NCBI GenBank assembly: GCA_947629405.1
Contig: CANRDL010000001.1
Coordinates: forward strand, 7,502 to 71,501
DNA: 64,000 nucleotides
Source of the DNA: an uncultured Bacilli bacterium
GTDB taxonomy: Bacteria > Bacillota_I > Bacilli_A > RF39 > UBA660
Reading direction: 5' to 3'
In this document: positions 3,001-58,389 of the stretch, one piece after another
Layout of the letters: each line of letters starts with the position of its first letter
How positions within the stretch are numbered: position 1 is the stretch's first letter
Position numbers and translations under genes: made by a program
Notes under the pieces: model-generated
The model's input: only the letters and a program-made list of their open reading frames with translations
What the model was told of the DNA's origin: nothing
The model's database searches: none

Positions 3001-3370
3001 ATTTAAAGATGTTAAAAAAACTTTGTGCATAATTGTTGGTATAAAATCATTTTACAATAAATTAAGTGACGAAAATCAAAATAATTTTTCGAGTCTTTTT
3101 GAAAACATTTCTGACTTAGACATAATAAATTATATATTTATTGATAACATTGATAATATAAAATATTATGAATCAGAATCATGGTTTAAATCATCATGTA
3201 ATACTAATAATGGTATTTGGATTGGAAATGGGCTTGATGATCAATATACTTTAAAAATTTCAAAAAGAACTTCTGATGTAAAAAAAGAAGTAGCAAGTAG
3301 TTTTTGCTTTGTAGTAAAAAAAGGTATACCAATATTAGTTAAGTTTGTAGAAAAATTTGATATAAAATAA
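1..3370 (+). CDS. essC: Type VII secretion system FtsK/SpoIIIE-family ATPase EssC (YukB-like), 5'-partial; frame is open from the window edge
   Basis: Reading frame open from nt 2. Walker A motif GTTGSGKSEF plus degenerate second and third P-loops (AAQSGKENF, etc.) is typical of the three-ATPase-domain EssC C-terminus. The fragment is 1116+ aa and the N-terminal FHA/TM part is missing. Confidence 0.8.
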   Translation, partial: PEEHFTMNEDNLMDMVNQLGNEEKILKNVPICFSFIKSYITAMVGKKKYCDVLLQNIILQLITFHSYDNLKIVLFTNKENLWKYEYLKILPHAFSDDKQIRFIAASTDEYKEICYNLERVLQKRKEEKNDAILYNQHYLIITDSFKQIRNFDFIKNLLELKKYYGFSTLIINDKLTSLPDTCQSFINIGEQNCEILSNETLNNRRKFVIDFNKRYDLYKLSKILANIPIEFNNNSDGKIPDKLGFLEMFDVGKVEQLNILNRWKKNSPMMSLQAPVGVGKSGEIISLDLHEKYHGPHGLIAGTTGSGKSEFIITYILSMAVNYHPYEVSFILIDYKGGGLAGAFENSGLKLPHLVGTITNLEENEINRSLASIESELKRRQILFNKAREISGESTIDIYKYQQMFREKVVEEPISHLFIISDEFAELKNQHPEFMEQLIQTARIGRSLGVHLILATQKPSGVVDPQIWSNTRFRVCLKVSDKSDSNEVIQCSDAAYLKQTGRFYLQVGLNEIYVLGQSAYTGGQYIPSDKIKKTIDSSILFIDNIGYVKKKVDTVKKNVNQTTNGEELINVLKYLNEVAKHENINVKPLWLPKMPSNIRIEELQAKYNYQKENFILNPIVGEYDVPDEQKQCLLTVPFSKEGNVLIYGAAQSGKENFIMTTIYSSMLYYDASEVNYYIFDFGAEILKCFENSPLVGDIIYVNDEEKIKNTFNMIQKAINERRKLFAPYGGSYYNYLKNTNQKIPAIVIIINGYDAFYETYESYDEDLSMLARDCTKYGIYLMITTISPNGIRFKLKQNFSNIYCLQQNDSDDYSSILGNVKNKLPAKIFGRGIIKLNDIYEFQTALITEKDNIVPYVIQKCTELNNTSTIKAPKIPILPEKVTNQDIIQEFNKNNEVIIGIDKNDLEIIKYNFIKENINIITTNDVSLIEPFINPFVNQILAMNYSNVILINAEEISLDDNFKKYYKYYDNNFNNIFNDISQYIKSSYENYKSNDFNKEIFKDVKKTLCIIVGIKSFYNKLSDENQNNFSSLFENISDLDIINYIFIDNIDNIKYYESESWFKSSCNTNNGIWIGNGLDDQYTLKISKRTSDVKKEVASSFCFVVKKGIPILVKFVEKFDIK

Positions 3371-9768: not shown

Positions 9769-11292
9769 ATGGAAAAAATAATAAGTTTTAAATATAACAA
9801 TTGTGAATATATTCTTTTTTACGATAAAGAATTAATATGTGGGAAGAATATAAATGGTAAATTAAGTTTTGATTTAACTCAAGATGAAAAGGATCTTGTT
9901 TTTTCTGTTTATTCAAAAGTAGTACCAACTGATAATTTAAAAAAACTTAGGAATGTCACTATTCATAAAAAAGTTTTTCAACATTTTTTTGATTTAACTA
10001 ATAGACTACATGTATTTTATGATGAATTTAACAATATTCCTAAATTAGAAGATTTTATAATTTTAAATAAATTATATAATAATCAAAAGCAATATTTTGA
10101 AAGTATAAAAAAAGATAAAAAAGCTTTAAAAGAAGAAAAAGATGCCAATTATATAAGAAGAAATGTAAGTGTTTATAAAAGAAATAAAAAAGAAAAAATT
10201 TGTGTTAATATTTTTCTATCATTATGCTTAATATATACAGGTTTCGTACATTTACAATGTGTTCCTAAGGTTGCTAATGTTATTCAAATAGAAACTGGTT
10301 TATATCAACAGTATGAGTCATTGAATGAAAATGATATAATTAATGCTATAAATAATAATCCTAATTTATCTAATGAAGAAAAAAAATATTTATCATCTTT
10401 TAATGATTTTTTCACTGATATGTTGCCATATTGGGATTACAGTGATTTAATGGATAGTTTATCAAAAATGACTATAAATTATACACCTGAAAGCGCTTCA
10501 AAAGTGAATGGTACTTGGGACCCAATATTTCGTCAAATATCAATTTATGAAAGTACTAAACTTACCAAAGATAATATAGGAACTTTAAGACATGAATTTT
10601 TTCATACAACTACCTCTAAAGCTGCTTCTTTGGGGATTACCATTGATGACGGATTTTATGAATTATTAAATAGAGTAATGGATGATGAATATAGTTATCT
10701 GAATTCTACATGTATAGAATATGATTATGGCTATAATTATATAGAAGAAATTGGATATATAATGCTAGATTTATTTGATAGTGAAACTTTAAAAGCGTAT
10801 CATGCCAAACCTAATTTACAAATGTTAATTGATAGCCTTATGAACATAATTCCAGATGAAGATATGGCTTATAATTTGCTTAATGATTTTAATGATTATT
10901 TTCTTGCTTGTAAAGGTTATTACGATATTGATAAAAAATTATTTGATTATAAATCAAAAGATGAGTTTTTTGAAAATATGTGTACATTAACTCCTTTATT
11001 AAAAGAAAATTTAAAAAAATATTGGGAACTTAAACATAGTAAAAGCATAAGTAGTGATCCGTTTATTTATTACTTATATAATAAATATGAGTATTATACA
11101 GATAGAATTATAAAAATAAATTGTAATAGTTATATTTCCTATTCAGAATTTGCTGATGGTGTAATTGCAAATTATAAACCTTGTATAAATCAAAGATTAT
11201 TTAATTCATATGACTTTAAGTTGTTAATTCCTTTAAAGGATGGTAGAACTGTTTCTTATATAGAAACTTATGATAAATCAATTACAAAATAA
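9769..11292 (+). CDS. Membrane-anchored putative zinc metalloprotease (gluzincin-like HEFFH...E)
   Basis: HEFFH motif with a Glu about 19-20 residues downstream (GFYE), matching thermolysin-type spacing. One predicted TM helix (ICVNIFLSLCLIYTGFVHL) precedes the HExxH domain. No family recognised. Confidence 0.45.
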   Translation: MEKIISFKYNNCEYILFYDKELICGKNINGKLSFDLTQDEKDLVFSVYSKVVPTDNLKKLRNVTIHKKVFQHFFDLTNRLHVFYDEFNNIPKLEDFIILNKLYNNQKQYFESIKKDKKALKEEKDANYIRRNVSVYKRNKKEKICVNIFLSLCLIYTGFVHLQCVPKVANVIQIETGLYQQYESLNENDIINAINNNPNLSNEEKKYLSSFNDFFTDMLPYWDYSDLMDSLSKMTINYTPESASKVNGTWDPIFRQISIYESTKLTKDNIGTLRHEFFHTTTSKAASLGITIDDGFYELLNRVMDDEYSYLNSTCIEYDYGYNYIEEIGYIMLDLFDSETLKAYHAKPNLQMLIDSLMNIIPDEDMAYNLLNDFNDYFLACKGYYDIDKKLFDYKSKDEFFENMCTLTPLLKENLKKYWELKHSKSISSDPFIYYLYNKYEYYTDRIIKINCNSYISYSEFADGVIANYKPCINQRLFNSYDFKLLIPLKDGRTVSYIETYDKSITK

Positions 11293-11990: not shown

Positions 11991-12002
11991 TTGGAGAAAT
12001 AT

Positions 12003-13997
12003 ATGAAAAAATTATTAAAAAAAATAGTTACTTTTTTAGTGATTATTTTTACTTTTATATTTATTTATCCTGATAATGTCTCTGCTACAACTATAAAACC
12101 AAGTCAAGATAGCAGATATAATTCTTATGAATATGTAATTGATAGTTATGATATAGATATTAAAGTAAATGAAAATAATACTTTTGATATTACGGAAACT
12201 ATCGTTGCTTATTTTAATCAACCTAAACATGGTATTTATCGAAATATTCCTTTAAAAAATACCATTAAAAGGTTAGATGGTACTACTTCAACTAATAGAG
12301 CTAAAATCACTAATGTTAAAGTAAGTGAAGAGGCTAGTGCATCAAAGTCAATGGGAGAATATAGTTTGCAGATTGGTTCTGAAGATAAAACAATAACTAA
12401 AGAACATGCCTATAAAATTAGTTATAATTATGATATAGGAAAAGATCCAGTTAAAGACTATGATGAACTATATTATAATATTATTGGTGATGAATGGGAT
12501 ACAGTAATTGGAAATGTAACATTTAAAATAACGATGCCCAAAGAATTTGATTCTAGTAAATTAGGATTTTCATCAGGCCTAAAAGGCTCAACTAATAATG
12601 AAAATATTACTTATAATGTTTCTGATAAAGTTATTGAAGGAAGCTATGATGCAATATTATCGCCTGGTGAAGCTTTAACAGTTAGAACAGAATTAGAAGA
12701 AGGTTATTTTGTTGGAGCAGGACATACTTTAAAAATAGGTGATTATTTAATTTATCTTGTTCCAATATTGTTTTTAGCGATTGCCATTTTGTTATGGCAT
12801 AAATATGGTAAAGATAATCAAGTTATTGAAACTGTAGAATTTTATCCACCGGAAGGACTAAATAGTTTAGAAGTAGGATTTTTATATAAAGGTTATGCTA
12901 ATAATACTGATGTTACTTCATTACTAATTTATCTTGCTAATAAAAAATATATAAAAATTGTTGAAACTGAAAAGAAAAGCTTATTTTCTAATAAGAAAGA
13001 TTTTAAAATTATTAAATTAAAAGACTATGATGGTGACAATAAAGAAGAAAAATTATTTTTAAAAGGCTTATTTAAAAATAAGTCTTCCTCAAAATCAAGT
13101 CATTTGAAAAATAAAATGCATGAGGGCAATGATACTTCAGAAGGAATTAGTGAAGTCACATCATCCGATTTATATGATAAATTTTATATTACAATGGAAA
13201 CAATAATTGATAATATTAATGATAAAAAAAGTAAAATTTTTGAAATAAAAAATGCAAGTAAATCATCTTATATTAAATTAATGATTTTTTTAACTTTCTT
13301 GATAATAACGATACCGCCTATATTATCATATGGTAATACTGATGAATTAATATTAGTTTTATTATTTCCAAGTTTTGGGTTTACTTTTTTATTTTTGGCA
13401 TTAATAGGTGGAGAAACAAATATGTCACACGTTAACAAAAAGTCTTCTTTAGTGATAACAAAAATATTTTATATAATATCTGGTTTATTTGCTTTACTCC
13501 CTGGAATCTTTTTCCTATTACCTGCTTTGTTACAAGAAAAATTATATTTAATAGGTTATTTGGTAGGATTAGGGTGTATACTAGGCTTACTTATTTGTCA
13601 TAAATATTTACCAAAAAGAACTCCATATGGTAATGAAATGTTAGGAAAAATAAGAGGCTTTAGAAATTTTTTAAAAACTGCCGAAAAAGATCGTTTAGAA
13701 GCTATGGTTATGCAAGATCCATCTTATTTTTATAATATTCTTCCTTATACTTATGTTTTAGGTGTTTCTGATAAATGGATTAAAAAATTTGAAACTATAT
13801 CATTACAGGCTCCTACTTGGTATGATAATCCTAATAATTTCAATATAACAGTATTTGAGAACTTTATAAATAATACTATGACATCTGCTCAAAATGTTAT
13901 GTCTTCTAGTCCAACTAATTCATCAAGTGGAAGTGGCTTTTCTGGTGGCGGGTCATCTGGAGGTGGCTCCGGCGGCGGAGGCGGAGGTTCTTGGTAA
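12003..13997 (+). CDS. DUF2207-family membrane protein (LemA partner) with a Gly/Ser-rich C-terminal tail
   Basis: Signal/TM N-terminus, multiple TM helices mid-protein, and a C-terminal SSGSGFSGGGSSGGGSGGGGGGSW tail characteristic of DUF2207 proteins. Immediately follows lemA. Start ATG 12003; the track's 11991 start is a TTG read-through. Confidence 0.75.
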   Translation: MKKLLKKIVTFLVIIFTFIFIYPDNVSATTIKPSQDSRYNSYEYVIDSYDIDIKVNENNTFDITETIVAYFNQPKHGIYRNIPLKNTIKRLDGTTSTNRAKITNVKVSEEASASKSMGEYSLQIGSEDKTITKEHAYKISYNYDIGKDPVKDYDELYYNIIGDEWDTVIGNVTFKITMPKEFDSSKLGFSSGLKGSTNNENITYNVSDKVIEGSYDAILSPGEALTVRTELEEGYFVGAGHTLKIGDYLIYLVPILFLAIAILLWHKYGKDNQVIETVEFYPPEGLNSLEVGFLYKGYANNTDVTSLLIYLANKKYIKIVETEKKSLFSNKKDFKIIKLKDYDGDNKEEKLFLKGLFKNKSSSKSSHLKNKMHEGNDTSEGISEVTSSDLYDKFYITMETIIDNINDKKSKIFEIKNASKSSYIKLMIFLTFLIITIPPILSYGNTDELILVLLFPSFGFTFLFLALIGGETNMSHVNKKSSLVITKIFYIISGLFALLPGIFFLLPALLQEKLYLIGYLVGLGCILGLLICHKYLPKRTPYGNEMLGKIRGFRNFLKTAEKDRLEAMVMQDPSYFYNILPYTYVLGVSDKWIKKFETISLQAPTWYDNPNNFNITVFENFINNTMTSAQNVMSSSPTNSSSGSGFSGGGSSGGGSGGGGGGSW

Positions 13998-14065: not shown

Positions 14066-14539
14066 ATGAAGGTGATAAATTTGCTGGAAGGATACAAATC
14101 TTTTAACAAAGATCATATTAATAGTTATGGAAGAAAATTTGAAGAAGATAAAATTTATGAATCGAAAGATGGATTTTATTTTAGCACTAATTTTGAAGAT
14201 ACACTAAGATATTTCGATGGTCATAATGAAGATATTTCTGTTGCTAAAGTTTTGTCTTTAAAATCTGAGAAAAAAATTATTAAAATAGAAGATGTATATT
14301 ATGGTTATTATGATAACTATATTACTAATTATTTAAAAATAATAAAATTTTTAGATAGAAATGATATTTATCATATTATTTGTAAATCAATAGATAATAT
14401 TGATAAAATAAAGAGAATTATTCAAGGATTAAAGTTAACTAATGAAGAAATAGAGTGGATTTTAAAAAATGTAGATAAATATCATTATAATTCTATAGAA
14501 AAAAGTATTAATTTTTATCAAAAAAGATTAAAAAGATAA
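14066..14539 (+). CDS. Hypothetical protein (157 aa)
   Basis: ORF only. A possible alternative TTG start at 14082 lies behind an AAGGTGA RBS. Confidence 0.4.
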   Translation: MKVINLLEGYKSFNKDHINSYGRKFEEDKIYESKDGFYFSTNFEDTLRYFDGHNEDISVAKVLSLKSEKKIIKIEDVYYGYYDNYITNYLKIIKFLDRNDIYHIICKSIDNIDKIKRIIQGLKLTNEEIEWILKNVDKYHYNSIEKSINFYQKRLKR

Positions 14540-14614
14540 CAATAAAAATACAACTAAAAACAAATTACTTTTCATAATTTGTTTTTTTTGTTATACTTTA
14601 TTTATGGTGATAAT

Positions 14615-16135
14615 ATGAAAAAAGTACTGACAATAGTATTAGATGGTTTTGGAATTAGAGAAGATGAACATGGTAATGCTATTAAAAATGCTCATACTCC
14701 TAATTTCGATAAATTATATAGTAGTTATCCCCATTCTTTATTGGAAGCAAGTGGAGAAGCGGTTGGTCTTCCCAATGGTCAATTTGGAAATAGCGAAGTT
14801 GGACATTCTACAATTGGGGCTGGACATAAATTAACGCAAAGACTTTTAGAAGTTACTGATTATTTAAAAACAGATGAAATTTTTGAAAATGAAAATTTTA
14901 AAGAAATGATAAATTATGCTAAAAATAATGATTCAAATATTCATTTAATTGGTTTAGCATCTAATGGTGGAGTGCATAGTGATATTCGTTTTTTTGAAAA
15001 AATATTATCGAAATTAAAGAAAATTAATATGAAAAAAATATATTTACATTTAATTACTGATGGTAGGGATACTTATACTAAATCAGCTCCTGTATTTGTT
15101 AAATATATTAATAATGCTATTGAAAAACATGGTATTGGTAAAATAGCAACTGTATGTGGAAGATACTATGCAATGGATAGAGATAATAAATGGGATAGAA
15201 CTAAATTATACTATGATGCAATTACTTACGGAAAAGGTATGAGTACTCGTAATTTAGATGATACAATCAAACAATATTATGAAAAGGGCATTACTGATGA
15301 ATTTTTACCACCAATTATTGTCGATAAAAATGGTGTTATTGAAGATCGTGATTGTATATTTTGGTTAAATTTCCGCAATGATAGAGCGAAACAAATTTTA
15401 ATGTCATTTGCAAATAAAGATTTTCATAATTATCCTCAAAAGCGAATGGATAATTATATCTTATCTTTATATGAAATTTCTAAAAATATTAAAACTCATT
15501 ATTTAATTGAAGAAAATTTAAGCGAAAATCCTTTAGGCATATATCTATCTAAATTAGGTTTAACACAAGCAAGAATTGCTGAAACGGAAAAATATGCTCA
15601 TGTTACCTTTTTCTTTGATGCACAAAAAGATCTTGATTTAGTTGGTTGTGACAAATATTTAGTACCATCGCCTAAGGTATCTACATATGATTTAAAACCA
15701 GAAATGAGTGCTTTTGAGGTAAAAGATAAAGTATTAGAGTGTTTAGATAAAGATTATGATTTCATATTAGTTAACTTTGCAAACTGTGATATGGTTGGAC
15801 ACACTGGTAATATGCAAGCAACCATCAAGGCCGTAGAAGCTGTTGATAAATGTTTAGGAGAAATTGTGGAAGGAGCTAAAAATAATTTTTATAAAATATT
15901 TTTACTAGCCGATCATGGAAATGCTGATTATATGCTAAATGATAAAAATGTAAAAATAACAACCCATTCATGTTCCAAAGTTCCTTTTATAATAACTGAT
16001 AAAAAAGTAAAATTAATTGATGGAACTTTATGTAATGTCGCACCGACAATTTTAAAATATATGGATATTGCCTTACCTAAAGAAATGGAAGAAACTGGGG
16101 ATTTATTCTATAATAAAGAGGAGAGTAGTATATGA
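14615..16135 (+). CDS. gpmI: 2,3-bisphosphoglycerate-independent phosphoglycerate mutase
   Basis: MKKVLTIVLDGFGIR, HSDIRF and ADHGNA motifs of iPGM. The start is at ATG 14615; the track ORF extends upstream artefactually. Confidence 0.9.
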   Translation: MKKVLTIVLDGFGIREDEHGNAIKNAHTPNFDKLYSSYPHSLLEASGEAVGLPNGQFGNSEVGHSTIGAGHKLTQRLLEVTDYLKTDEIFENENFKEMINYAKNNDSNIHLIGLASNGGVHSDIRFFEKILSKLKKINMKKIYLHLITDGRDTYTKSAPVFVKYINNAIEKHGIGKIATVCGRYYAMDRDNKWDRTKLYYDAITYGKGMSTRNLDDTIKQYYEKGITDEFLPPIIVDKNGVIEDRDCIFWLNFRNDRAKQILMSFANKDFHNYPQKRMDNYILSLYEISKNIKTHYLIEENLSENPLGIYLSKLGLTQARIAETEKYAHVTFFFDAQKDLDLVGCDKYLVPSPKVSTYDLKPEMSAFEVKDKVLECLDKDYDFILVNFANCDMVGHTGNMQATIKAVEAVDKCLGEIVEGAKNNFYKIFLLADHGNADYMLNDKNVKITTHSCSKVPFIITDKKVKLIDGTLCNVAPTILKYMDIALPKEMEETGDLFYNKEESSI

Positions 16136-16908
16136 AAAAACAAATAAAAAAAGAAAATAAAAAAAATAAACCAAAATTAGAAATAAAAAATTTATTTAAT
16201 TATTTAACTTTAATTTTTGTTGGTTTAGCAATAATAGCTGTAATATTTTTAATAATATTTTCTATTATTAACAAAAATAGTTTAAAAAAGGAAAAAAATC
16301 AAGAAGTTAAAGTTAGTGATGCTACTAAATTTAAAAATGATTATGAAAATCTTAATAACAAAACAAACGATAATAATCAAAAATATCCTGAAGTATCAAT
16401 TAGTGATGATAATGTTGTTAAGTATACTTCTTATAAAGAAATTAATAGTATTTTAGATAATAAAAAAACTGCTGTTATCTATTTTGGCTTCAAAGAATGT
16501 CCATGGTGTAGAAATGCTGTTCCTGTTCTTTTACAAGCAGTATCATCTACGGGATTAGATAAATTATATTATTTAGATATTAAAAATGATCGAAATGAAC
16601 TAAAGAAAGAAAATGGTCAAATTAAAACAGTAAAAGAAGGAAAAGAAGATTATAATAAATTAGTAAGTCGACTTTCCGATAAATTAGATGTGTATGAAGG
16701 GCTTGAAGATAATACTATTAAAAGAATATATGCTCCAACTGTTATGTTTATAAAAAATGGTGAAGTTGTAAGTATTCATACCTCAACAGTTGAAAGTCAA
16801 AAAGATCCTTATAATATTTTAGATAAAAATCAAAGAAAAGAGTTATATGAAATTTATAAAAAGGCAATTTTAGACATCCTTGATTCTAGTTGTGATGAGG
16901 CATGTTAA
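16132..16908 (+). CDS. Membrane-anchored thioredoxin-like protein (CPWC active-site motif)
   Basis: N-terminal TM helix and FKECPWCRNAV thioredoxin-fold motif. ATGA overlap with the gpmI stop. Confidence 0.55.
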   Translation: MKKQIKKENKKNKPKLEIKNLFNYLTLIFVGLAIIAVIFLIIFSIINKNSLKKEKNQEVKVSDATKFKNDYENLNNKTNDNNQKYPEVSISDDNVVKYTSYKEINSILDNKKTAVIYFGFKECPWCRNAVPVLLQAVSSTGLDKLYYLDIKNDRNELKKENGQIKTVKEGKEDYNKLVSRLSDKLDVYEGLEDNTIKRIYAPTVMFIKNGEVVSIHTSTVESQKDPYNILDKNQRKELYEIYKKAILDILDSSCDEAC

Positions 16909-17046
16909 AAAAAATTGTCTTTTTTTTGACAAACTATTTACATAAATTATTGTAATGAAAAAAAATAATGATATAATTATAATTGTAAGAATCGTAGATG
17001 ATATGACGATTGCTTTATGTATAAATAAATTTAGGAGGGTGTAAAA

Positions 17047-18444
17047 ATGTCAAAAGACAAACAAACAGAAAGAGAAGAAAGAACAATATTTATCGTTTTA
17101 GCAATTATATTACTTATTGCCATTGGTATTATTGTTACTTGGTATTTTACAAGGAATAAAGAGGATAAAAAATTAAAGGATAAAAAGAAACCAGAAACAA
17201 AAGAAGTAGTAAAAAAAGAAGATGATACAACTGAAGAAATTGCTTATGTAGAACCAGAAGTTGTTCAAACAGTAGCAACTACTGAAGAAACAAAAGTAGA
17301 AATTCCTGCTCCAGTAATAACTTATGGTAGTGAAATTAATTCATTACTTAAACAATATCAAAATGGTATTGATTTAAGTACTACTAATGTAAATTTAGAT
17401 GATTTTAAAAATGATGTAACAGCTGAAGATTACCAAGGTAATAATGTTACTGTAGAAACTTTAATCGTTGCATACATGATTGATGGAAGTCAATGGAATA
17501 TTACAAACGAGCCAAATATCCAAATTACTGCTAGCATAGACAAAATTGTAATTTCATATAAAGCTACAGATAATGATGGTAGAGTAACTACAAAAACTAT
17601 AGTGCTTGATGTTAATAATAATATAGCAAATTTACAAATTACTAATGAAAATAAGCAATTAAAACAAGAAAAAGGTCAATATAGTTTAATTATTGATCAA
17701 AATGAAAAACTTGAATTATCATTTTATTCAAATAATATTAAAGAAACATCAATTGATAATAAAAATATAAATCAAAGTGATCAAGAAACTTCTTATATTG
17801 AAGATGTAATAGTTAAAGTAGATGAAAATGATAGTAATGCAGGAACAGTTACTTATAGTAAAAGTGTAAAAGATCTTGATGAAACATTAACTATTAATGT
17901 TAATAATCAAATACTTACTATAAATATTACAAAAGTTGGTATAAATGAATTAAAGATAGATTCAAAACCTGTTACTATAAAAGAAGATGGAACAATAGAA
18001 GAAATAACAGCTGAAGGTACCACAATAGGAATTGAATTAACTTTAACAGATGAAACATCTAATATGAAATTGATTAAAGATAATGAAGAAATAGCTGCAG
18101 AAAAAGAACAAAATAAATATAAGATATCTGATATACAATTAAATGAAGGACAAAATAAATTTGAAATTGTAGTTGAAAATCAAGGAATTAAAAAAGAATA
18201 TACTTTTATAGTTACTTATAATAATCCTAGTCCATCAAGTATGTCTGCAATAAATCTAGAAACAAATTTTGGAAATGAGATTATATCTTTAAAATCTAAT
18301 AAAGATATGGAAGAACCAAAAGAAGAAATTAAAGAAGAAATTGATGAATGTGAAACTAATACTGAAGAAGAAAAAGTAGAAGAAACAGAGTTAGATCAAA
18401 ATACAGAATTAGAAGATACAATCAATTCTTTAGAAAATGAATAG
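17047..18444 (+). CDS. Hypothetical surface/membrane protein, Thr/Glu-rich
   Basis: N-terminal TM (IFIVLAIILLIAIGIIVTWYF), beta-rich middle region and an acidic C-terminus. No family recognised. Confidence 0.45.
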   Translation: MSKDKQTEREERTIFIVLAIILLIAIGIIVTWYFTRNKEDKKLKDKKKPETKEVVKKEDDTTEEIAYVEPEVVQTVATTEETKVEIPAPVITYGSEINSLLKQYQNGIDLSTTNVNLDDFKNDVTAEDYQGNNVTVETLIVAYMIDGSQWNITNEPNIQITASIDKIVISYKATDNDGRVTTKTIVLDVNNNIANLQITNENKQLKQEKGQYSLIIDQNEKLELSFYSNNIKETSIDNKNINQSDQETSYIEDVIVKVDENDSNAGTVTYSKSVKDLDETLTINVNNQILTINITKVGINELKIDSKPVTIKEDGTIEEITAEGTTIGIELTLTDETSNMKLIKDNEEIAAEKEQNKYKISDIQLNEGQNKFEIVVENQGIKKEYTFIVTYNNPSPSSMSAINLETNFGNEIISLKSNKDMEEPKEEIKEEIDECETNTEEEKVEETELDQNTELEDTINSLENE

Positions 18445-33248: not shown

Positions 33249-34187
33249 ATGTTAAATGAAGAAACAAAAAATGAAATTAGGAATTTAATTGATTCTTATG
33301 GTATTAAAAAATGGGATCAAAATTTTTTAGATAAAATAAGTGAAATTGTTAATAATGATGATTATTTTGATAATTGTATTTCTATAATAAAAGATAATCA
33401 TATTAAATGTCCTATGGAAACAGATTATAGAAATACAATATATGAAAATAGTAATTTAATTGAAAAATTTATCGTTTGTACATGTAAAAGTTTAAAAAAA
33501 AATTTAAATTTAAAATATAATGATAAAAATCATCATTTACAAAATAAAAGTGATTTTATAACTCAAAATTTTCTTTTAATATTTTTATATTTACATGAGT
33601 GTTCACATGTTAAACAAAGTTTATATGCTTATAAGGATAAATCTGAATATGATCAAATTAATTCTATATATTATCGATTTAGAGTTTTGGAGTACCGTAG
33701 TATTTTTGATGACCAATATTTTTCAAAAATAAAAAGGATTATACGACAAAGAAACTATCATAATCATCATGATGATTATTTTTATGAAAGAAATGCTGAT
33801 ATAGAATCTTTAAAAGAATTAATGGCGATTTATGATAATAATTTTTTCAAAGATGCTATTGATATTAATTATATAAAAAAATTAATAAGTTATTTGTCAT
33901 TAGCTTATTATAAAGGTTATGAAAAAAAAGGGAATAAAATTATTTCACCATTTGAAAAAACTCTTAAATATTGTTTTTTTCCACCGGAAAATTTTAATTT
34001 TCAAAATTTACCATTTGAAATAATATTTGAACACGGTTTTCCTATAACTTTTAACGAATATCAAGAAATATTTAAAAGTACTAAAATTTTTCAAAATAAT
34101 TATTATAAACGTTTTGAAAATTTCAAAAATGTTGATCAGGATTATCATAATATTAATAAAAAGATAAAATCTTTAAATCAGAAATGA
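33249..34187 (+). CDS. HExxH-motif protein, paralog 1 (putative metallopeptidase-like; family unknown)
   Basis: 312 aa. LHECSHVKQ motif. Conserved C-terminal NFNFQNLPFEIIFEHGFPITFNEYQEIFKSTKIF. Confidence 0.5.
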   Translation: MLNEETKNEIRNLIDSYGIKKWDQNFLDKISEIVNNDDYFDNCISIIKDNHIKCPMETDYRNTIYENSNLIEKFIVCTCKSLKKNLNLKYNDKNHHLQNKSDFITQNFLLIFLYLHECSHVKQSLYAYKDKSEYDQINSIYYRFRVLEYRSIFDDQYFSKIKRIIRQRNYHNHHDDYFYERNADIESLKELMAIYDNNFFKDAIDINYIKKLISYLSLAYYKGYEKKGNKIISPFEKTLKYCFFPPENFNFQNLPFEIIFEHGFPITFNEYQEIFKSTKIFQNNYYKRFENFKNVDQDYHNINKKIKSLNQK

Positions 34188-34371: not shown

Positions 34372-35289
34372 ATGTTAAATGAAGAAACAAAAAATGAAAT
34401 TAGGAATTTAATTGATTCTTATGGTATTAAAAAATGGGATCAAAAATTTTTAAATAAATTAAGTGAAATTGTTAATAATGATGATTATTTTGATAATTGC
34501 ATTTCTATGATAAAAGATAATCATATTAAATGTCCTATGAAAACAACTATTGAAAATATAATATATGAAAATAATAAGTTAATTGAAGAAATGATTATTT
34601 GGACATGTAAATATTTAAAAAAAGATTTAAACTTAAAAGATAATGATAAATATCATCATTTACAAAATAAAAATGATTTTATAACTCAAAATTTTCTTTT
34701 AATATTTGCGTATTTACATGAATGTTCACATGTTAAACAAAATTTATGTGCATTGAATAATAAATCAGAATATAGTCAAATTAATTCTATATATTATCGT
34801 TTTTATAATTTTGATTCTCAAAATTTTTCAAAAATAAAAACATTTATAAGACGAAGAAACTATCATACATATCATGCTGATTATTTTTATGAAAGAAATG
34901 CTTATATAGAATCTTTAAAAGAATTAATGGGAATTTATGATAATAATTTTTTCAAAGATGAAATTGATTATAATTATATAAAAAAATTAATAAGTCATAT
35001 GTCATTAATTTATTATACAGGTTATGAAAAAAAAGGTAATAAAATTATTTCACCATTTGAAAAAACTCTTAAATATAGTTTGTTCCCACCTGAAAATTTT
35101 AATTTTCAAAATTTACCATTTGAAGTAATATTTGAACATGGTTTTCCTATAACTTTTAATGAATATCAAGAAATATTTAAAAGTACTAAAATTTTTAAAA
35201 AAGATTATAAACTTTTTGAAAATTTCAATAATATTGTTTCGGATTATCATAATATTAATAAAAAAATAAAATCTTTAAATAGAAAATAA
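34372..35289 (+). CDS. HExxH-motif protein, paralog 2
   Basis: 305 aa. Same N-terminus (MLNEETKNEIRNLIDSYGIKKWDQ) and the same LHECSHVKQ motif as paralog 1. Confidence 0.5.
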   Translation: MLNEETKNEIRNLIDSYGIKKWDQKFLNKLSEIVNNDDYFDNCISMIKDNHIKCPMKTTIENIIYENNKLIEEMIIWTCKYLKKDLNLKDNDKYHHLQNKNDFITQNFLLIFAYLHECSHVKQNLCALNNKSEYSQINSIYYRFYNFDSQNFSKIKTFIRRRNYHTYHADYFYERNAYIESLKELMGIYDNNFFKDEIDYNYIKKLISHMSLIYYTGYEKKGNKIISPFEKTLKYSLFPPENFNFQNLPFEVIFEHGFPITFNEYQEIFKSTKIFKKDYKLFENFNNIVSDYHNINKKIKSLNRK

Positions 35290-35364
35290 AGAGTAAATAA
35301 AATTATTGGCAAATAATTTAAGTTATGTTATAATGATTTTATAAAAAAAGGCCATGATTAAGAA

Positions 35365-35560
35365 GTAGTAATAAGAGATTTATTTAAAGAGAGTCTATGG
35401 TTGGTGGAAATAGATAATAATATCTTATGAATTCGTCTTAGGAGCTTTATAAACAAAATTTATAACGGTGACGCGTTATAGTCATTAAGGTGTATATTTA
35501 TATACATAAATTAAGGTGGTACCACGTAGACACACGTCCTTATAGGATGTGTTTTTTTAA
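35365..35560 (+). promoter_or_regulatory. T-box riboswitch leader (Phe specifier UUC) with terminator
   Basis: aaagagagtctatggttggtggaaa stem-I element, specifier region atgaaUUCgtc, T-box sequence aaattaaggtggtaccacg, and terminator acacacgtcc...ggatgtgt followed by TTTTTTT. Confidence 0.8.
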
Positions 35561-38997: not shown

Positions 38998-39152
38998 AAT
39001 TTTTTATTAAACTTTGTAGTTAAATGAAAGAATAATTTAAAAACTTGGTTTTAGAAATATTTTGGCAAACCAATTAAATGTGTAATTTGACAAAATTATA
39101 AACAAAATCTTAATTTTATGTTATAATGAAAATATAGAATAGGATGTGTTTT

Positions 39153-39929
39153 ATGAAAGATGTTAATTTACTAATAAATAATAATGTTAATGTTAAAAAA
39201 AGTTTAGAAATATTTGAAAACATGCAAACCTATGATGAAATTTTATTAGAATTTTTAAATACTGTTGATGATAAAATTTCTAAAATAAAAACTTATAAAG
39301 AAATAGGGGATATGGCAAATTATGCTATTCAATCTCATTCTTTAAAAAGTGATGCTCGTACTTTTGGATTTGAAAAACTTGCTGAAATTGCTTATCAACA
39401 TGAAATGGCTGGTAAAGCAAATGATATTTATTTTGTTACAGAACATTTTGACGAATTTATGAAAGAAGCAATGTTTATTTCTAACTTAGTAAAACAATAT
39501 TTTGGTAAAACACCTGTAACAGTTTCTAATAATCAAACACAAGTTAATAATATAACTAATAATACAATCTTAGTAGTTGATGACTCTACTATAATAGTTT
39601 CCTATATTGAAAAAATGTTAGGTAAAGAATATAATGTAAAAATAGCTAATGATGGTGAAGAAGCTTTAAATATTATAAAAAATGATTCTGATAATATTGT
39701 AGCTATGTTACTTGATTTAAATATGCCTAATGTTGATGGTTATCAAGTACTTGAATATTTTAAAGAAACTAATTTATTTAAGAAAATACCTGTTGCAATT
39801 ATTACGGGAGAAGATTCTAAAGATTCAATTAATAAAGTATTTAAATATCCAATTACTGATGTTTTAGCAAAACCGTTTAATGAATCTAGAATTAAAGAAA
39901 TAATAAATAAGATGTTAAATTTTAAATAA
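39153..39929 (+). CDS. Hpt-domain plus CheY-like receiver (REC) domain phosphorelay protein; no cognate kinase adjacent
   Basis: Hpt motif HSLKSDARTFGF. REC with LVVDDS, phospho-acceptor LLDLNMP and K in LAKPF. Confidence 0.7.
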   Translation: MKDVNLLINNNVNVKKSLEIFENMQTYDEILLEFLNTVDDKISKIKTYKEIGDMANYAIQSHSLKSDARTFGFEKLAEIAYQHEMAGKANDIYFVTEHFDEFMKEAMFISNLVKQYFGKTPVTVSNNQTQVNNITNNTILVVDDSTIIVSYIEKMLGKEYNVKIANDGEEALNIIKNDSDNIVAMLLDLNMPNVDGYQVLEYFKETNLFKKIPVAIITGEDSKDSINKVFKYPITDVLAKPFNESRIKEIINKMLNFK

Positions 39930-39936
39930 TAAAAAT

Positions 39937-39961
39937 AAAGCATTAATTGCTTTATTTTTTT
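39937..39961. terminator. Bidirectional terminator between the Hpt-REC gene and the convergent sigma gene
   Basis: aaagcattaattgcttt hairpin followed by a T-run. Confidence 0.55.
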
Positions 39962-40022: not shown

Positions 40023-43000
40023 TTAAGCTACTTTTTGTAATTTTACTTCTTTTAATTTTTTATATTCTGAAATTATTAATTTCATAGCTTGCAATCTAAT
40101 TTTTTCGACATCATGTTTAGTTAAATTATAAAATTTAGCAATTTTTGTAATATTAAATCCACATAGATAAAGTATAATAATCCTATATTGATTACCTGTC
40201 AATTTATTTTTCATTACATCAAGTATTTTTTGAGATTCTTCTTTACACTCATCTAGCAAACTTTCATTAAACCATATTAGTGTTAAAGTTAATGCTTTTT
40301 CTTCATAATAATAAATAAGGGTATCTAACATCTTTAATAAACTATTTTTAGAATTACAATTTTTTTCAATTGCATCAATTGTATCATTTTTAAAAAAATT
40401 AATTTGATCTAATCTTTTTACTTGTTCTATTGATAAATTATTATTAGTATAGCGGTCATTTTGATCTTTTAACCATCCATTTAATTCGATAATTTTATTA
40501 TTAGAAGTATCTTTTGTAATATTTAAATTTCCATTATTATTATAATATTTTTGCGCTGTATTATAATTTTTTTCCCATAAACGTAAATCCCATATCATAC
40601 CAATTTGTTCCAACTTATAAATTCTATTTTTACTTAATTTATTTTGTTTATATAAATATCTTTGTAATTTAATCCATTGTCCTAATTTTACTCCATTTAT
40701 TATGTAATTATTAGGGATTAATAAATTTCCATTTTTTCTATAATAATCTTGAGCTAATTTAAATTTTTCATTCCATTTATCTTCTTGAAAACGGGTAGTA
40801 TTGTTATTATATTTATGTCTATTTGCTTGTTCTTTAGTTAATACCCAAACCATTCCTATTTTATTTAATTTTTCAATTCTTCTTTCACTTAGTTGATTTT
40901 TTCTATATAATTTTCTTTGTCTGAATATCCAATAACCTAATTTAATTCCATTAACTTCATAACCGTAAGGAACTAATAAATTTTTATGTTCTTTATAATA
41001 ATTTTGAGCTAATTTATATTTTTCATTCCATTGTTCTTCCAATATATTTATTTTTGGTTTCTTTTTATTTTTTCTATTATATTGCTCTTTAGGTACTACC
41101 CAAACCATTTTTATTTTATTTAATTTATCAATTTTTTCTTTACTTAATAAGTTTTTTCTATAGTATTGTCTTTGTCTTACTATCCAATAACCTAAATTTA
41201 CTTCATTTACTACATAATTTTTAGGAATTAATAAATTTTTATGTTCTTTGTAATACTCTTCAGCTAGTTTATATTTTTCATTCCATTGTTCTTCTATTTT
41301 ATTTATTTTTGGTTTCTTTTTATGATTTCTATAATATAGCTCTCTAGGTACTACCCAAACCATTTTTATTTTATTTAATTTATCAATTTTTTCTTTACTT
41401 AATAAGTTTTTTATATAGAATCGTCTTTGATTAGAAATCCATTGTCCTAAATTTATGCCATTAACTACATAACTATAAGGAATTAATAAATCTTTGTGCT
41501 CTTTGTAATACTCTTCAGCTAATTTATATTTTTCTTCCCACATTTTTTGTAATTTTGGATTTTTTCTTTTGTGGTGACTATTTCTATTATATAGTTCTTT
41601 TGGTACTACCCAAACCATTTTTATTTTATTTAATTTATTAATTCTTTCTTCGCTTAATTTATTGTTTTTGTAATTTTGTCTTTGCAATGCTATCCAATTA
41701 CCTAAATTAACTCCATGAATTACATAACTTTTAGGTATTAATAAATTTTTATGTTTATTATAATACTCTTCGGCTAATTTATATTTTTCATTCCATTTGT
41801 CTTCAAGAGAAACTCTAACTTTTTTACTATCTTTATTAATATTATTATTTTGAGTATGACTAATTATTGGTGTTTTAGATTGTGTTATATTGTTTGCTAA
41901 TTTAATATCCAATTCATCTTTTAATTTTTTTAGCATTTGATATATTCTTTGTTGTTCATTTTGAGATGGATTTTCTATACTAAATAAACTATATTCTTCT
42001 TCATTAAAAAGTGCTATTACTTCCTTACTAACCATTTTTTTATCATAGTTTGTATATTTTAAAAAATTTCGAAGATTTTTAAATATATTTTCATCTTTTG
42101 TATTTTGTTGATTCATTTTTTCAGTTTTCAAATAGTTATTATTTGAAAAATTTTTAAGTTTTCTTAAAGCTTTAGCTTCTATTTGTCGTATACGTTCACG
42201 AGTAACATTAAATTTTTTTCCTACTTCTTCTAAAGAACGCTTTATACCATCTTTTAATCCAAAACGTAATTCTATAACAGTTTTTTCGTTTTCATTTAAA
42301 TATTGTATTGCTTCTTTTATTTGAGATATAAGAAGAGAATTAGTAGCATATTCTTCTGGATTAATAGTATTTTTATCTTCTATAAACATTTTTAAATCAG
42401 CATCATTGTCATCTCCAACTGGATTTTCTAATGACACTGTATTTTGACTAATTTCTATTATATTATTAATATAAGAAATGCTTTTATTGGCTTTTTTAGC
42501 AATTTCTTCTATTGTTGGTTCACGATTGAGTTCAATAATTAATTGTTTTTTTAAAGAAGCTATTTTTTCTATACTTTTAATTTTATTAGTTGGTATACGA
42601 ATTGTTCGCGCTTGTTTTTGTAATGCACTTGTTATAGCTTGTCTTATCCACCAAGTAGCATATGTGGAGAATTTAAATCCTTTGGTATAATCAAATTTAT
42701 CTATTGCTTTTATTAATCCAGCATTACCTTCTTGAACTAAATCTAGAAAGGATAAACCACGATTTCTATATTTTTTAGCAATAGATACAACTAATCGTAA
42801 ATTTGCTTCAGAAAATTTTTTTCGCGCAATTTTGTTTCCTTCCGCTATTTGTTTTGCTAATATTTGTTCTTCTTCTAAAGTTAATAAAGGTATACGACTT
42901 ATTTCCTGTAAATATATCTTTTCTGGATCATATTGATCAAAATTTATTTCTTCTATTTCTTCTTTCTCTTCAATATCAATATTATTAATTGAACAATAAA

Positions 43001-43274
43001 CTTCTAGTAAAGATATTGCAAAGTCATTATTAAATATTTTCTCTAATTCATTTTTTTTAATAAAATCTATATTTTTATCTACAACTATTTTTAAGATATT
43101 ATTTAATTTAGTATTATAAGTTAATAGGGATATTATACTTTCAATATCTTGCAATGAATTTTCAAATTTCAAACAAAATTCTATAAAAAACCTATAACTA
43201 TGTTTATAATCTAATGGTTCCACTAAGTTTTCATTAAAAAATTCAGTTATTTTTTGAAAATCATTTACTTTCAT
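40023..43274 (-). CDS. RpoD-like sigma-70 factor (regions 1.2 to 4.2) fused to seven HA (helicase-associated)-type repeats and a second C-terminal sigma region-4-like HTH
   Basis: Region 1.2 [21 protein letters not shown]. Region 2 [50 protein letters not shown]. Region 4.2 [24 protein letters not shown]. Then 7 repeats [47 protein letters not shown]. The C-terminus [43 protein letters not shown] is an HTH. Confidence 0.75.
40390..41810 (-). repeat. In-frame ~258-nt tandem direct repeats (5 to 7 copies) encoding the HA-type modules
   Basis: Near-identical blocks such as ccaaaccatttttattttatttaatttatcaattttttctttacttaataagtttttt recur at ~41100, ~41350 and ~41600. Confidence 0.85.
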
Positions 43275-43421
43275 AATAATCCCTTATTTCATATATTTTA
43301 ATTTCTTTAGAAATCCATTAAAATATCAACATATTATAACAGATTATTTTAATATTGCCAATTTTTTGTCAAATTATGGTTTTATTAAATTTTCAAATAA
43401 AAAAATAAAGAATTAATTGTT

Positions 43422-44513
43422 TTATTTTTCATGTCTAGAAATATTTAATATTATTCCAACTGAAGCCATAGAAACAAGTAATGAAGAACCACCATAAGAT
43501 AAAAAGGGAAGAGTAACTCCTGTTACAGGAATTAATCCAACAACAACCATTAAATTAAGCAAGGCTTGTAAAACAATACCAAAAGATAAACCAAATGCTA
43601 AATATTTGGAAAAATTATCTGGGGCTTTTAAAGAGATTTTTATCATTCGATAAAAAATAAAACCAAAAAAGAAAGTAACAATTAAAACTCCCAAAAAACC
43701 AAATTCTTCGGAAATAATTGAAAAAATAAAATCGGTTTGGGGTTCGGGAAGATAAAAATGTTTTTGTCGAGAATTTAAAAATCCTTGGCCTAAAAGACCA
43801 CCAGGTCCAATTGCATATAAGGATTGAATTATTTGAAAGCCACTTCCCAGTGGATCATTCCAAGGATTAATAAATGAAACAATTCTTTTTAGACGATATG
43901 GAGCAGCAATAATTAATGCTATTATGCCGACAAGACCAAATATTCCTGCTTTTATAAAAAAAGAAATATTAACTCCTGAGATAAATAAAACAACTATTAA
44001 AGTAGCAACCATTACCATACCTGTTCCAAAATCAGGTTCTAGCATAATTAAACCAAAAAAAGCTAAAATTACTAATAAAATAGGTAATACTCCTTTTTTT
44101 ATACTTCTGATATCTTTACTATTATTAGCAAGATATTTAGAAACAAAAATTATTAAAGCAATTTTTGTGGCTTCACTAGGTTGAATACCTAAAGGACCAA
44201 TACCAAACCAACTTCTAGCGCCATTACGAACTTTTCCAATACCAGGTATTAAAACAAGAATTAATAATATAAAACAAATAAGCAAAAGTAAATTAGATTT
44301 TTTTTGATAAAAATTATAATCTATTTTTGAAATAAATATCATTAAAAAGATACCAATTATAAAAAAGACAGTTTGGGATTTAACATATTTAAAAGGATCA
44401 TTAAATTTATATTCGGCCCAAATATAGCTTGAAGAATAAATCATAATTATTCCAAATATAATCATGGCTATAACGGCTATGAAAAGAAGTATATCAAATG
44501 ATTTATTTTTCAT
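43422..44513 (-). CDS. ftsW: SEDS-family peptidoglycan glycosyltransferase FtsW/RodA
   Basis: About ten TM helices. SEDS motifs (GSGF...GPGG, PLPFLSYGGSSL). Confidence 0.85.
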   Translation of the reverse strand: MKNKSFDILLFIAVIAMIIFGIIMIYSSSYIWAEYKFNDPFKYVKSQTVFFIIGIFLMIFISKIDYNFYQKKSNLLLLICFILLILVLIPGIGKVRNGARSWFGIGPLGIQPSEATKIALIIFVSKYLANNSKDIRSIKKGVLPILLVILAFFGLIMLEPDFGTGMVMVATLIVVLFISGVNISFFIKAGIFGLVGIIALIIAAPYRLKRIVSFINPWNDPLGSGFQIIQSLYAIGPGGLLGQGFLNSRQKHFYLPEPQTDFIFSIISEEFGFLGVLIVTFFFGFIFYRMIKISLKAPDNFSKYLAFGLSFGIVLQALLNLMVVVGLIPVTGVTLPFLSYGGSSLLVSMASVGIILNISRHEK

Positions 44514-56685: not shown

Positions 56686-58389
56686 GTGGTGATAATAATG
56701 AGTATGGATCAAAAAAATCAAATAATTGAAGATTATATAAATAATATTTCGAGTCAAGTTAATAGTCGATATAATGGATTAATAAATAATGATATAATAT
56801 CTCGTGCTTTAATAATGTTTAAAGATTCTTCTAAAGATTTGAAAACAGAGATTATTCCCAAGATAAATGAATATATGTTAGAAATTGTAACAAATTATCT
56901 TAAAGCTAAAGAAAAAGAACAAACAAATATAATGCTTAAAAATATTGAAAAAAATATAAATTCAGATTTTTTTATAGAAATGTTAAAAAGAAATTGGGAA
57001 AAGACACATAATATTCAATTATTGAGCAAATTAATTGGTGAATTATATATTCATCATATTATAAATAAAGACAGTTATGGGTTTGAAAATTATATGAACC
57101 ATATTGAAAAACTATATTTACAATATAATAATAAACAAATATCTCCCAAGCAATTCGAATTTCAAAGAGCTAAACTAATTTCAATGATAATAGGAATGAA
57201 AATGGGGATAGATTTAAATAAAAAAATATCAGTTGAAGATATAGAAAGAGTCAAAAATCATTTTTTACAAGAATATATTTCTAATGGCTATGTATCCCAT
57301 TCATTTCCTGATGCTTACTATGAGTCAATAATGAAAAATGGATTAATTTCTTCAACTAAATTAAGAAATGACAAACCATTGGAAATTCAAGAAATTCAGG
57401 ATATATTTATGAAAAAAGGTGTTGTTGCACCAATGGGAGGATATCCTTATTATGGTGGCTCTGGAATATATTATGAGCAGGAGTTTACGAAAATGTTTTG
57501 GCATTCTATAGATTCTCCTGAATGGTTTAAATGGTTTACTTCATCTGATCATTTTACAACTTATCATAATAATATAGAAACATCTCCATATATCTTAAGA
57601 AGTGAAAAAGATTGTAGAAGGAATATCGATGATTTATGTAGAAATGCTGAATTAGATGATAATGATACAAAAAAAGTAGTAAATTTTTATCAAAAACAAT
57701 ATGCTAAATTTATGTCGCCAAAATTAAATGTTGCTCTAATTTCCAAAAAAACAGTTGGAAAAGATAACATCCGAGAAGCAGTTCCTCAGAATATGGATTT
57801 ATTTAGTACAATAAGTTATGTTTTAAATGATGGGGCACATCAATATAGCGAACATAAAGGAAATGTTTATAATGGAGTTATTCCTCCTACAGAATTAAAT
57901 ATTTCTGTTATACCGAATGCTTCAATATATATTAAATCTGATAACTATAGTAGAGAAACAAAAGAACATTTGACAAACCCAGATAGTAATTTAGCATTTT
58001 TACAAATTGCTGAAGAAAACAAAAATAGATTAGTTTCTTCTATGCCTTCAAAAATAGAAAAAGCCGAAAGTGAAATTATGCGAAAAAAAAATCCACCTTT
58101 TAATTTTAGAAATGAAACAATAAGTGAAACTAATCCTACTTTTTCAAAGAATAATAATTTTGAAAAAAGAAGTTCTAATGAAATACAAATAGCAAATCAA
58201 ATCAAACAAAAAAATCAAATGATAAAAAAACAAAAACTACAACTTAATAGGCCTAAAGTTTTAACTAAATCTAATTTAAGTGGTAGTTCAACTGGAAACA
58301 AAGGATTTATTAATAGTATTACATTATCATTAATAGTTATTTTTATATTAGGAACATTGTTTGTAGTTTACATGTTAATTAGGAGATAA
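56686..58389 (+). CDS. Hypothetical 567-aa protein with a C-terminal tail-anchor TM helix
   Basis: C-terminal SITLSLIVIFILGTLFVVYMLIRR. The rest is soluble with no recognised domain. Confidence 0.45.
   Translation: MVIIMSMDQKNQIIEDYINNISSQVNSRYNGLINNDIISRALIMFKDSSKDLKTEIIPKINEYMLEIVTNYLKAKEKEQTNIMLKNIEKNINSDFFIEMLKRNWEKTHNIQLLSKLIGELYIHHIINKDSYGFENYMNHIEKLYLQYNNKQISPKQFEFQRAKLISMIIGMKMGIDLNKKISVEDIERVKNHFLQEYISNGYVSHSFPDAYYESIMKNGLISSTKLRNDKPLEIQEIQDIFMKKGVVAPMGGYPYYGGSGIYYEQEFTKMFWHSIDSPEWFKWFTSSDHFTTYHNNIETSPYILRSEKDCRRNIDDLCRNAELDDNDTKKVVNFYQKQYAKFMSPKLNVALISKKTVGKDNIREAVPQNMDLFSTISYVLNDGAHQYSEHKGNVYNGVIPPTELNISVIPNASIYIKSDNYSRETKEHLTNPDSNLAFLQIAEENKNRLVSSMPSKIEKAESEIMRKKNPPFNFRNETISETNPTFSKNNNFEKRSSNEIQIANQIKQKNQMIKKQKLQLNRPKVLTKSNLSGSSTGNKGFINSITLSLIVIFILGTLFVVYMLIRR

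Follow-up and report, generated by a model that had tools for sequence, protein, structure and literature searches.

A SigA-like sigma factor fused to helicase-associated repeats and a predicted sigma4-like domain in an uncultured gut Bacilli bacterium

Introduction

In textbooks, promoter choice in bacteria is determined by sigma factors, and to our knowledge no DNA-binding array at the C-terminus and no second copy of domain 4 has been described for those of group 1 or group 2. A 64-kb stretch of DNA from an uncultured Bacilli bacterium (GenBank assembly GCA_947629405.1, contig CANRDL010000001.1, positions 7,502 to 71,501 of the forward strand; hereafter the window) encodes a protein that appears to combine a sigma-70 part with an array of helicase-associated (HA) repeats and a C-terminal domain resembling sigma domain 4. 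Is this fusion real, is it the housekeeping sigma factor of its organism in an extended form, as an earlier note made from the sequence had raised, and what could such a tail do? The analysis presented here points to a genuine fusion and, probably, to an alternative sigma factor derived from SigA, one of a small family whose tails differ in their number of HA units.

Results

Architecture of the sigma-HA protein

The gene is a single unbroken open reading frame (ORF) on the minus strand of the window, 40023-43274, corresponding to 1083 amino acids (aa) plus stop. Pfam searches, complemented by alignments, divided it into the following parts:

40023..43274 (-): whole ORF, a sigma-70 family protein with HA array and sigma4-like C-terminal domain (ORF and Pfam)
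42921..43274 (-): family-specific acidic N-terminal domain, aa 1-118, net charge -13, isoelectric point 4.4, in place of region 1.1 (without Pfam match)
42831..42920 (-): sigma region 1.2, aa 119-148 (Pfam PF00140, Sigma70_r1_2, E 1.2e-11)
42603..42809 (-): sigma region 2, aa 156-224, with canonical 2.4 motif (Pfam PF04542, E 4.6e-23; alignment)
42348..42572 (-): sigma region 3, aa 235-309, with altered region 3.0 motif (Pfam PF04539, E 8.8e-17; alignment)
42153..42311 (-): sigma region 4, aa 322-374, 4.2 recognition helix that of canonical SigA (Pfam PF04545, E 3.3e-17; alignment)
41808..42119 (-): linker, aa 386-489 (no significant Pfam match)
40578..41807 (-): five tandem 85-aa HA units, aa 490-559, 575-644, 660-729, 745-814 and 830-899, with 15-aa linkers
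40386..40577 (-): sixth, degenerate HA unit, aa ~900-963 (among the six Pfam stretches; 30 bits with a local hidden Markov model, HMM)
40026..40385 (-): C-terminal domain, aa 964-1083, whose core at aa ~1009-1075 (40050-40250) is a sigma-domain-4-like helix-turn-helix (HTH)

The matches to PF04542 and PF04545 both exceed their gathering scores, which places the protein in the sigma-70 family by its regions 2 and 4. Together with those to regions 1.2 and 3 and to the HA model PF03457, they bear out the fusion of sigma-70, HA array and sigma4-like C-terminus proposed in the earlier note, whose quoted motifs are found in the ORF translation. The description of the first ~480 aa as a complete primary sigma factor stands in part: regions 1.2 to 4 are present, but they occupy only aa 119-385, region 1.1 is absent and no family was detected in Pfam for aa 386-489. 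For this linker, the identity of a third, degenerate sigma4 was rejected (hhalign against region 4, probability 0.7%). A motif within it was seen by eye also in the relative P0138 and on contig L010, the resulting three-sequence alignment being too weak for use.

The repeats score well above the gathering score of PF03457 (E 7.4e-100; 327.7 bits against 28.4; six stretches). Five regular units of 85 aa each begin at aa 494, 579, 664, 749 and 834, and the underlying DNA has a period of 255 bp (4.3 copies, 80% matches in Tandem Repeats Finder). In the local HMM, the sixth unit (aa ~898-963) reaches 30 bits, compared with ~130 for each of the regular ones. Since motif scan, Tandem Repeats Finder and local HMM concur, the count of seven repeats given previously has to be lowered to six, five tandem and one degenerate. 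Compared with the solved HA domain (2KTA), the unit showed the HA fold and is a three-helix unit. The net charge is +6 to +8 for every regular unit and +2 for the degenerate sixth; the linkers that join the units are basic and disordered (three at +4 to +5, the fourth at +2), and the net charge of aa 490-963 amounts to ~ +50. DNA binding by HA is reported by Mills et al. 2013 (cited in PMC12191111), and the domain also occurs fused to helicases, PLD nucleases and TniQ.

The C-terminal core (aa ~1009-1075) was predicted to adopt a Sigma4/LuxR-type HTH fold, and the domain has no match to Sigma70_r4 or r4_2 in Pfam.

Integrity of the fusion and strain comparison

Three cluster representatives (large protein database; ENA metagenome assemblies) are 95-96% identical, 1082-1083 aa long and of the same Pfam architecture. 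One near-identical copy is located on the 84-kb contig L003, in the same pbp2B-mraY-ftsW-sigma synteny as in the window. Between the window gene and this 96% identical orthologue, the ratio of non-synonymous to synonymous differences per site (pN/pS, Nei-Gojobori method) is 0.2-0.39 in five of six segments, representing the N-terminal domain, sigma core, HA units and C-terminal domain; the linker, without any synonymous difference, yields no ratio. These values indicate purifying selection on all four of these parts. The protein is 95.9% identical between window and L003, while the flanking genes are 98-100% identical (99-100% for PBP2B, MraY, FtsW, MurG, PheS and PheT), so the sigma-HA gene evolves noticeably faster than its neighbours.

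Could the ORF nonetheless be an artefact, that is, a chimeric assembly or frameshift joining separate sigma and HA genes, or a decaying pseudogene? The repetitive HA array (255-bp period, 80% identity) could mislead assemblers, and several database sigma entries (P0004-P0007) are obvious assembly duplications. Yet the 1082-1083-aa ORF recurs across several assemblies and samples that are independent of one another, the fusion is also present in relatives at 38-50% identity, its junction lying at a variable distance from region 4, purifying selection is seen on all four parts that gave a ratio, and the gene has a conserved promoter-like site and ribosome-binding site along with a terminator-like hairpin 3' of the stop (see below). 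The synteny shared by independent copies, the pN/pS values and the identity of promoter region and ribosome-binding site make both a chimeric join and a pseudogene very unlikely, close to negligible in our estimate. The assembly join that the earlier note had wished to see excluded is not present: the same ORF, uninterrupted, occurs in independent assemblies.

The database entries P0004-P0007 are 600-700-aa ‘sigma factors’ consisting of tandem duplications of a normal SigA, probably assembly artefacts, and owing to them the top scores of the first search were inflated.

Relation to the housekeeping sigma factor

The best NCBIfam model for the protein is RpoD, with scores below the cut-offs (NF006666, 362.9 against 572 bits; TIGR02393, 312 against 354). 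Region 1.1, which canonical relatives possess (PF03979), is absent from the Pfam matches, and the acidic N-terminal domain was rejected as a divergent version of it (hhalign probability 0.2%). In the core alignment, the window protein is 56% identical to canonical SigA and 42-52% identical to its paralogues, all of which sit on long branches outside the tight SigA cluster; canonical Bacillota SigAs are 74-90% identical among themselves. Region 2.4 (TWWIRQAIT) and the 4.2 recognition helix are canonical, the same as in SigA. The canonical region 3.0 motif RTIRIPVHMVETINK is altered, the near-invariant VHMVETINK reads TNKIKSIEK, and the conserved C-terminal HPSRSK tail of SigA is gone, with NFSNNN in its place.

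The locus is not adjacent to dnaG, the gene lying between ftsW and a gene for an Hpt-REC protein; canonical dnaG-sigA pairs were found on L009 and L022-L029. Contig L005, from the same sample as L003 and of equal coverage (219 and 218, respectively), carries a 388-aa paralogue together with the sigma-HA protein P0123. On L009, which belongs to a metagenome-assembled genome (MAG; NCBI GCA_947627995.1), a canonical dnaG-sigA pair is situated ~10 kb from the genes for P0121 and P0122; this SigA has 361 aa and a region 1.1, and its N-terminus is only ~60% identical to that of the reference SigA P0144. The conventional rpoD next to dnaG, for which a search had been advised, was thus not found in the 64-kb window but is seen in this related genome. 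Two candidates for the canonical sigA of the window organism were discarded: P0144, on a 1.9-kb Logan contig, and P0339, from another organism. The MAGs with names that are related to P0144 are labelled Bacilli bacterium, Ca. Faecisoma and Acholeplasma sp.

Several observations would fit an extended housekeeping (group 1) sigma factor: RpoD as best NCBIfam model, regions 2.4 and 4.2 identical to SigA, and no second sigma factor within the window, with the canonical sigA of its genome deduced from a relative rather than observed directly. Against it stand the RpoD score (363 against a cut-off of 572), the missing region 1.1, the loss of the near-invariant region 3.0 motif and of the C-terminal tail, the long branch with 56% identity to SigA, the position away from dnaG, the divergence between strains (95.9% aa identity against 98-100% for flanking housekeeping genes), at least three paralogues of equal coverage within one sample, and the canonical dnaG-sigA pair of the related genome. 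As the protein fails the group 1 tests, has paralogues at the same coverage and has a relative with dnaG-sigA, a role as housekeeping or sole sigma factor is unlikely; judged from its sequence, the window protein is very probably not the housekeeping sigma. We accordingly give little credence to the suggestion that the housekeeping sigma itself has been extended. The protein resembles group 2 in its regions 1.2 to 4, which are close to those of a primary sigma factor; coexistence with a canonical sigA is seen in a relative only.

A small, lineage-specific family

Six further sigma-70 + HA clusters emerged when 1.84 billion representatives were searched exhaustively with HMMER and the matches examined with Pfam; they are 38-50% identical over the matched stretches (42-50% in the sigma core) and have 2 to 20 HA units:

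P0121: 2157 aa, 20 HA units
P0123: 731 aa, 3 HA units
P0138: 932 aa, 3 HA units
P0141: 467 aa, 2 HA units
P0176: 707 aa, 2 HA units
P0181: 735 aa, 2 HA units

The N-terminal domain of the window protein is common to the sigma-HA relatives (alignment A1; alignable proteins include P0121, P0123 and P0138), and it is also found on sigma paralogues that lack HA units altogether (the 388-aa protein at L005:6578-7744, P0175, P0235 and P0160), which brings the range of HA copy number among relatives to 0-20. Their genomic contexts vary, all of them in the core chromosome:

recA - sigma388 - P0123 - merR
leuS - sigma568 - P0121 - P0122 - proS
dnaJ - fragment - P0176 - HA/sigma - P0181
truB - P0160

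Directly 3' of the gene for the 2157-aa P0121 is that for P0122 (L004 16479-20639 / L009 2306-6466), a protein of 1386 aa with 17 HA units and a sigma4-like C-terminal domain, without a sigma core. The C-terminal domain of the window protein also closes P0121, P0123, the 568-aa paralogue and the HA-only P0122 (hhalign probability 97.7%). As it is shared with the sigma-less P0122, the HA array with its sigma4-like end would be a free-standing module that was joined to a sigma paralogue. Two shuffled relatives occur on L010 (9461-9982 and 12164-13612), adjoining two sigma-HA genes. One, of 173 aa, links a sigma1.2-2.1 fragment to a single HA unit, with the junction at the point where sigma ‘AKKY’ resembles HA ‘AKKYYE’; the other, of 483 aa, has the reverse order, a degenerate sigma preceded by two HA units at the N-terminus.

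A GTDB scan retrieved no close relative of the window protein, and the family, as delineated from these sequences, is small, lineage-specific and fast-evolving, limited to a few uncultured low-GC gut lineages. Literature searches brought up no characterised sigma-70 + HA counterpart and nothing relevant on the combination of sigma and HA, in agreement with the earlier note, to which no characterised sigma-70 with an HA array was known.

Genomic context and transcription signals

The sigma-HA gene starts 147 bp 3' of ftsW (43422-44513), on the strand that it shares with mraY and pbp2B; the ORF map reproduces both the spacing and the shared strand reported before. The following signals surround it:

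43333..43361 (-): promoter-like site TTGGCA-17-TATAAT with TG extended -10, ~55 bp upstream of the ATG (a consensus match only, at 11 of 12 positions)
43281-43285 (-): AAGGG ribosome-binding site
39931..39959 (-): terminator-like hairpin in a U-rich stretch 3' of the stop, between the convergent sigma and Hpt-REC genes (folding against shuffles)

The promoter-like site and the ribosome-binding site are identical in L003. The hairpin folds with -10.9 kcal/mol (z -3.4; 2/200 shuffles as good) and was missed by a rule-based terminator scan because its stem is AT-rich. Folding gave no support for termination in the spacer 3' of ftsW, where the hairpin is matched by its shuffles (-3 kcal/mol, z 0.18). 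The sigma-HA gene likely has its own, predicted SigA-type promoter, and read-through from ftsW, as would fit the link to the division operon raised in the earlier note, is possible.

The window represents the core chromosome of a Bacillota with 24% GC and encodes EssC, PolA, ThrS, TypA, PriA, PheST, MurG, FtsQ and ComEC, among others. From its genes, the placement in Bacillota is approximate and draws on EssC, the T-box and genes of sporulation type; the organism is abundant in ENA ERZ27249118. At 14178-17752, L003 contains ~3.7 kb extra between the Hpt-REC gene and pheT that is absent at window 38998-39143; the additional genes are those of a hybrid histidine kinase and an acyltransferase together with a 322-aa ORF, and the absence of this DNA leaves the Hpt-REC protein of the window (39144-39929) without a neighbouring kinase. 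Directly upstream of pheS-pheT is a T-box leader at 35345-35544 (+) (Rfam RF00230, 120.5 bits), ordinary for Bacillota. The Firmicutes-type type VII secretion ATPase EssC (TIGR03928, 904 bits) is encoded at 20-3370 (+), its N-terminus apparently cut by the window edge. The ORFs at 9769-11292, 11991-13997, 17047-18444 and 56686-58389 (+), of 465-668 aa, have no NCBIfam match at E 1e-10, and two ORFs of ~310 aa (33249-34187 and 34372-35289, +) have no Pfam match; all six represent uncharacterised proteins of the lineage. Several low-coverage assemblies of this organism, represented by the murG-containing ENA contigs L016-L019, break 237 bp upstream of murG, in the divergent region between murG and pbp2B, towards pbp2B.

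Discussion

A sigma factor with a predicted DNA-binding tail

The reading that we favour, and hold to be reasonably probable, is that of a SigA-derived, group-2-like alternative sigma factor with a polycationic, multivalent DNA-binding tail, most of the weight falling on the descriptive part of that statement. The sigma core would bind core RNA polymerase and read SigA-like -35/-10 promoters, while the extended -10 contact would probably not be made by this sigma. From sigma4, positioned at the -35 element, the tail would emerge as a flexible ‘beads-on-a-string’ polycation able to contact upstream or neighbouring DNA multivalently, and the terminal sigma4-like HTH may touch DNA once more, with greater specificity, or else contact polymerase. 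The expected outcome would be a holoenzyme anchored or concentrated on DNA and biased to a subset of promoters, the HA copy number setting the reach of the tail. For the tethering step taken alone, the anchoring of the holoenzyme to DNA by the tail, we can offer a tentative proposal that may well prove wrong. The idea of an extra nucleic-acid tether put forward in the earlier note fits the basic HA units, their disordered basic linkers and the literature on DNA binding by HA.

Several points weigh against this interpretation. The prediction of DNA binding leans on a literature claim and on charge, and basic charge alone is weak evidence since the K/N-rich composition is partly genome-wide, a consequence of 24% GC; we infer both DNA binding by these HA units and the whole mechanism from sequence. 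The resemblance of the C-terminal domain to sigma4 reached an hhalign probability of 42% (E 2.6e-4), and its model, built from a four-sequence alignment, has an overall predicted local distance difference test score (pLDDT) of 60. Moreover, the -35-contacting RERIRQ of region 4.2 reads KHDVEK in this domain, which may therefore not bind DNA in the manner of sigma4. As for the alternative status of the factor, a canonical sigA in the genome of the window organism is presumed by analogy with a relative, and the assignment of L003 and L005 to the same genome rests on shared sample and coverage.

One rival reading is a regulatory tail, in which the HA array and its sigma4-like end fold back on, or compete with, the factor's own domain 4 or the beta-flap, or else recruit partners including free HA proteins; in the fold-back variant, the factor would be inactive until a signal arrives, as in C-terminal extensions of the ECF41/42 type (ECF, extracytoplasmic function). 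A C-terminal domain with a sigma4 fold that lacks the -35-contact residues would suit a mimic, the free HA + C-terminal domain and HA-only proteins encoded beside sigma-HA genes hint at HA-HA contacts or contacts of the C-terminal domain with polymerase, and the acidic N-terminal domain could pair with the basic tail. On the other hand, neither an anti-sigma-like partner nor a domain that senses signals turned up, the literature describes HA as DNA-binding, its other fusion partners are enzymes that act on DNA, and a copy number varying from 0 to 20 would be odd for a fold-back inhibitor. We consider this mode of action unlikely, albeit worth keeping in mind. That the gene belongs to a mobile element, to a phage or to a defence against phages, e.g., as a sigma akin to MzaA, is scarcely credible. 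It is true that MzaA models match the protein (NCBIfam 273 bits, PADLOC 180 bits), that HA is present in defence nucleases and that the gene evolves faster than its neighbours, but the MzaA match is to the generic sigma core only and, for NF041931, amounts to 273 against a cut-off of 800. No Mza partner or mobile-element genes are found nearby, the locus between ftsW and pheST being part of the core chromosome. With this score, a PADLOC match confined to the sigma core, and ftsW and the Hpt-REC gene as neighbours, membership in an MzaA defence system was rejected; so was a phage origin of the HA tail, HA arrays being nearly absent from 50,697 phage records, with one weak match.

A bolder extension of the tethered sigma factor would be a class with length-tunable multivalent anchoring, in which the HA array binds upstream DNA, the second sigma4 reads a distal -35-like element or docks on a second polymerase, and the free HA + sigma4 neighbours act as competitors or co-factors. 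This is a speculative and rather unlikely scenario; if true, a bipartite ‘sigma + tethered reader’ would govern promoter choice, and not the -35/-10 elements alone.

Comparison with known systems

A SigA-like core with 2-20 HA modules, often followed by an extra sigma4-like HTH, would couple promoter recognition to added DNA contacts in a new way, and with this family the HA domain, still poorly understood, would gain a functional setting beyond helicases and nucleases. The host organisms are uncultured gut Bacillota, but the size of the proteins would allow biochemistry after heterologous production.

Among known factors, the closest likeness is to group 2 sigmas (RpoS, Streptomyces HrdA-D, cyanobacterial SigB-E), which are derived from primary sigma factors, keep regions 1.2, 2, 3 and 4 with near-canonical -10/-35 helices and coexist with a canonical primary sigma, as observed here in a related genome. 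Unlike them, the window protein possesses a private acidic N-terminal domain and a ~700-aa extension with HA units and a second sigma4-like domain. The HA repeat itself is shared with helicase-HA proteins of the SNF2/DEAD type (Bacteroides vulgatus BVU_0683, PDB 2KTA; a Ruminococcus MAG protein on L001), whereas in the window protein the array is attached to a sigma part and has a sigma4-like HTH at its end. No helicase domain was found in the window protein with Pfam; the L001 protein has Helicase_C and 11 HA units.

Extensions fused C-terminally of region 4 are known from ECF41 and ECF42 (PMC3426412, PMC7826278). These ECFs consist of only regions 2 and 4 with SnoaL-like or tetratricopeptide repeat (TPR) extensions, in contrast to the regions 1.2 and 3 and the HA array plus sigma4 found here. 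Polycationic sigma extensions occur in other gut Bacillota, as judged from P0117, a canonical RpoD of 654 aa from a Lachnospiraceae MAG whose N-terminal ~250 aa form AKP/KKAA repeats resembling histone H1. In concept, the coupling of a sigma factor to an extra DNA-targeting element would parallel the RNA-guided dCas12f-sigmaE transcription complex (PMC12259091); the modules of the latter and of P0117 are unrelated to that of the window protein, which is covalently fused at the C-terminus.

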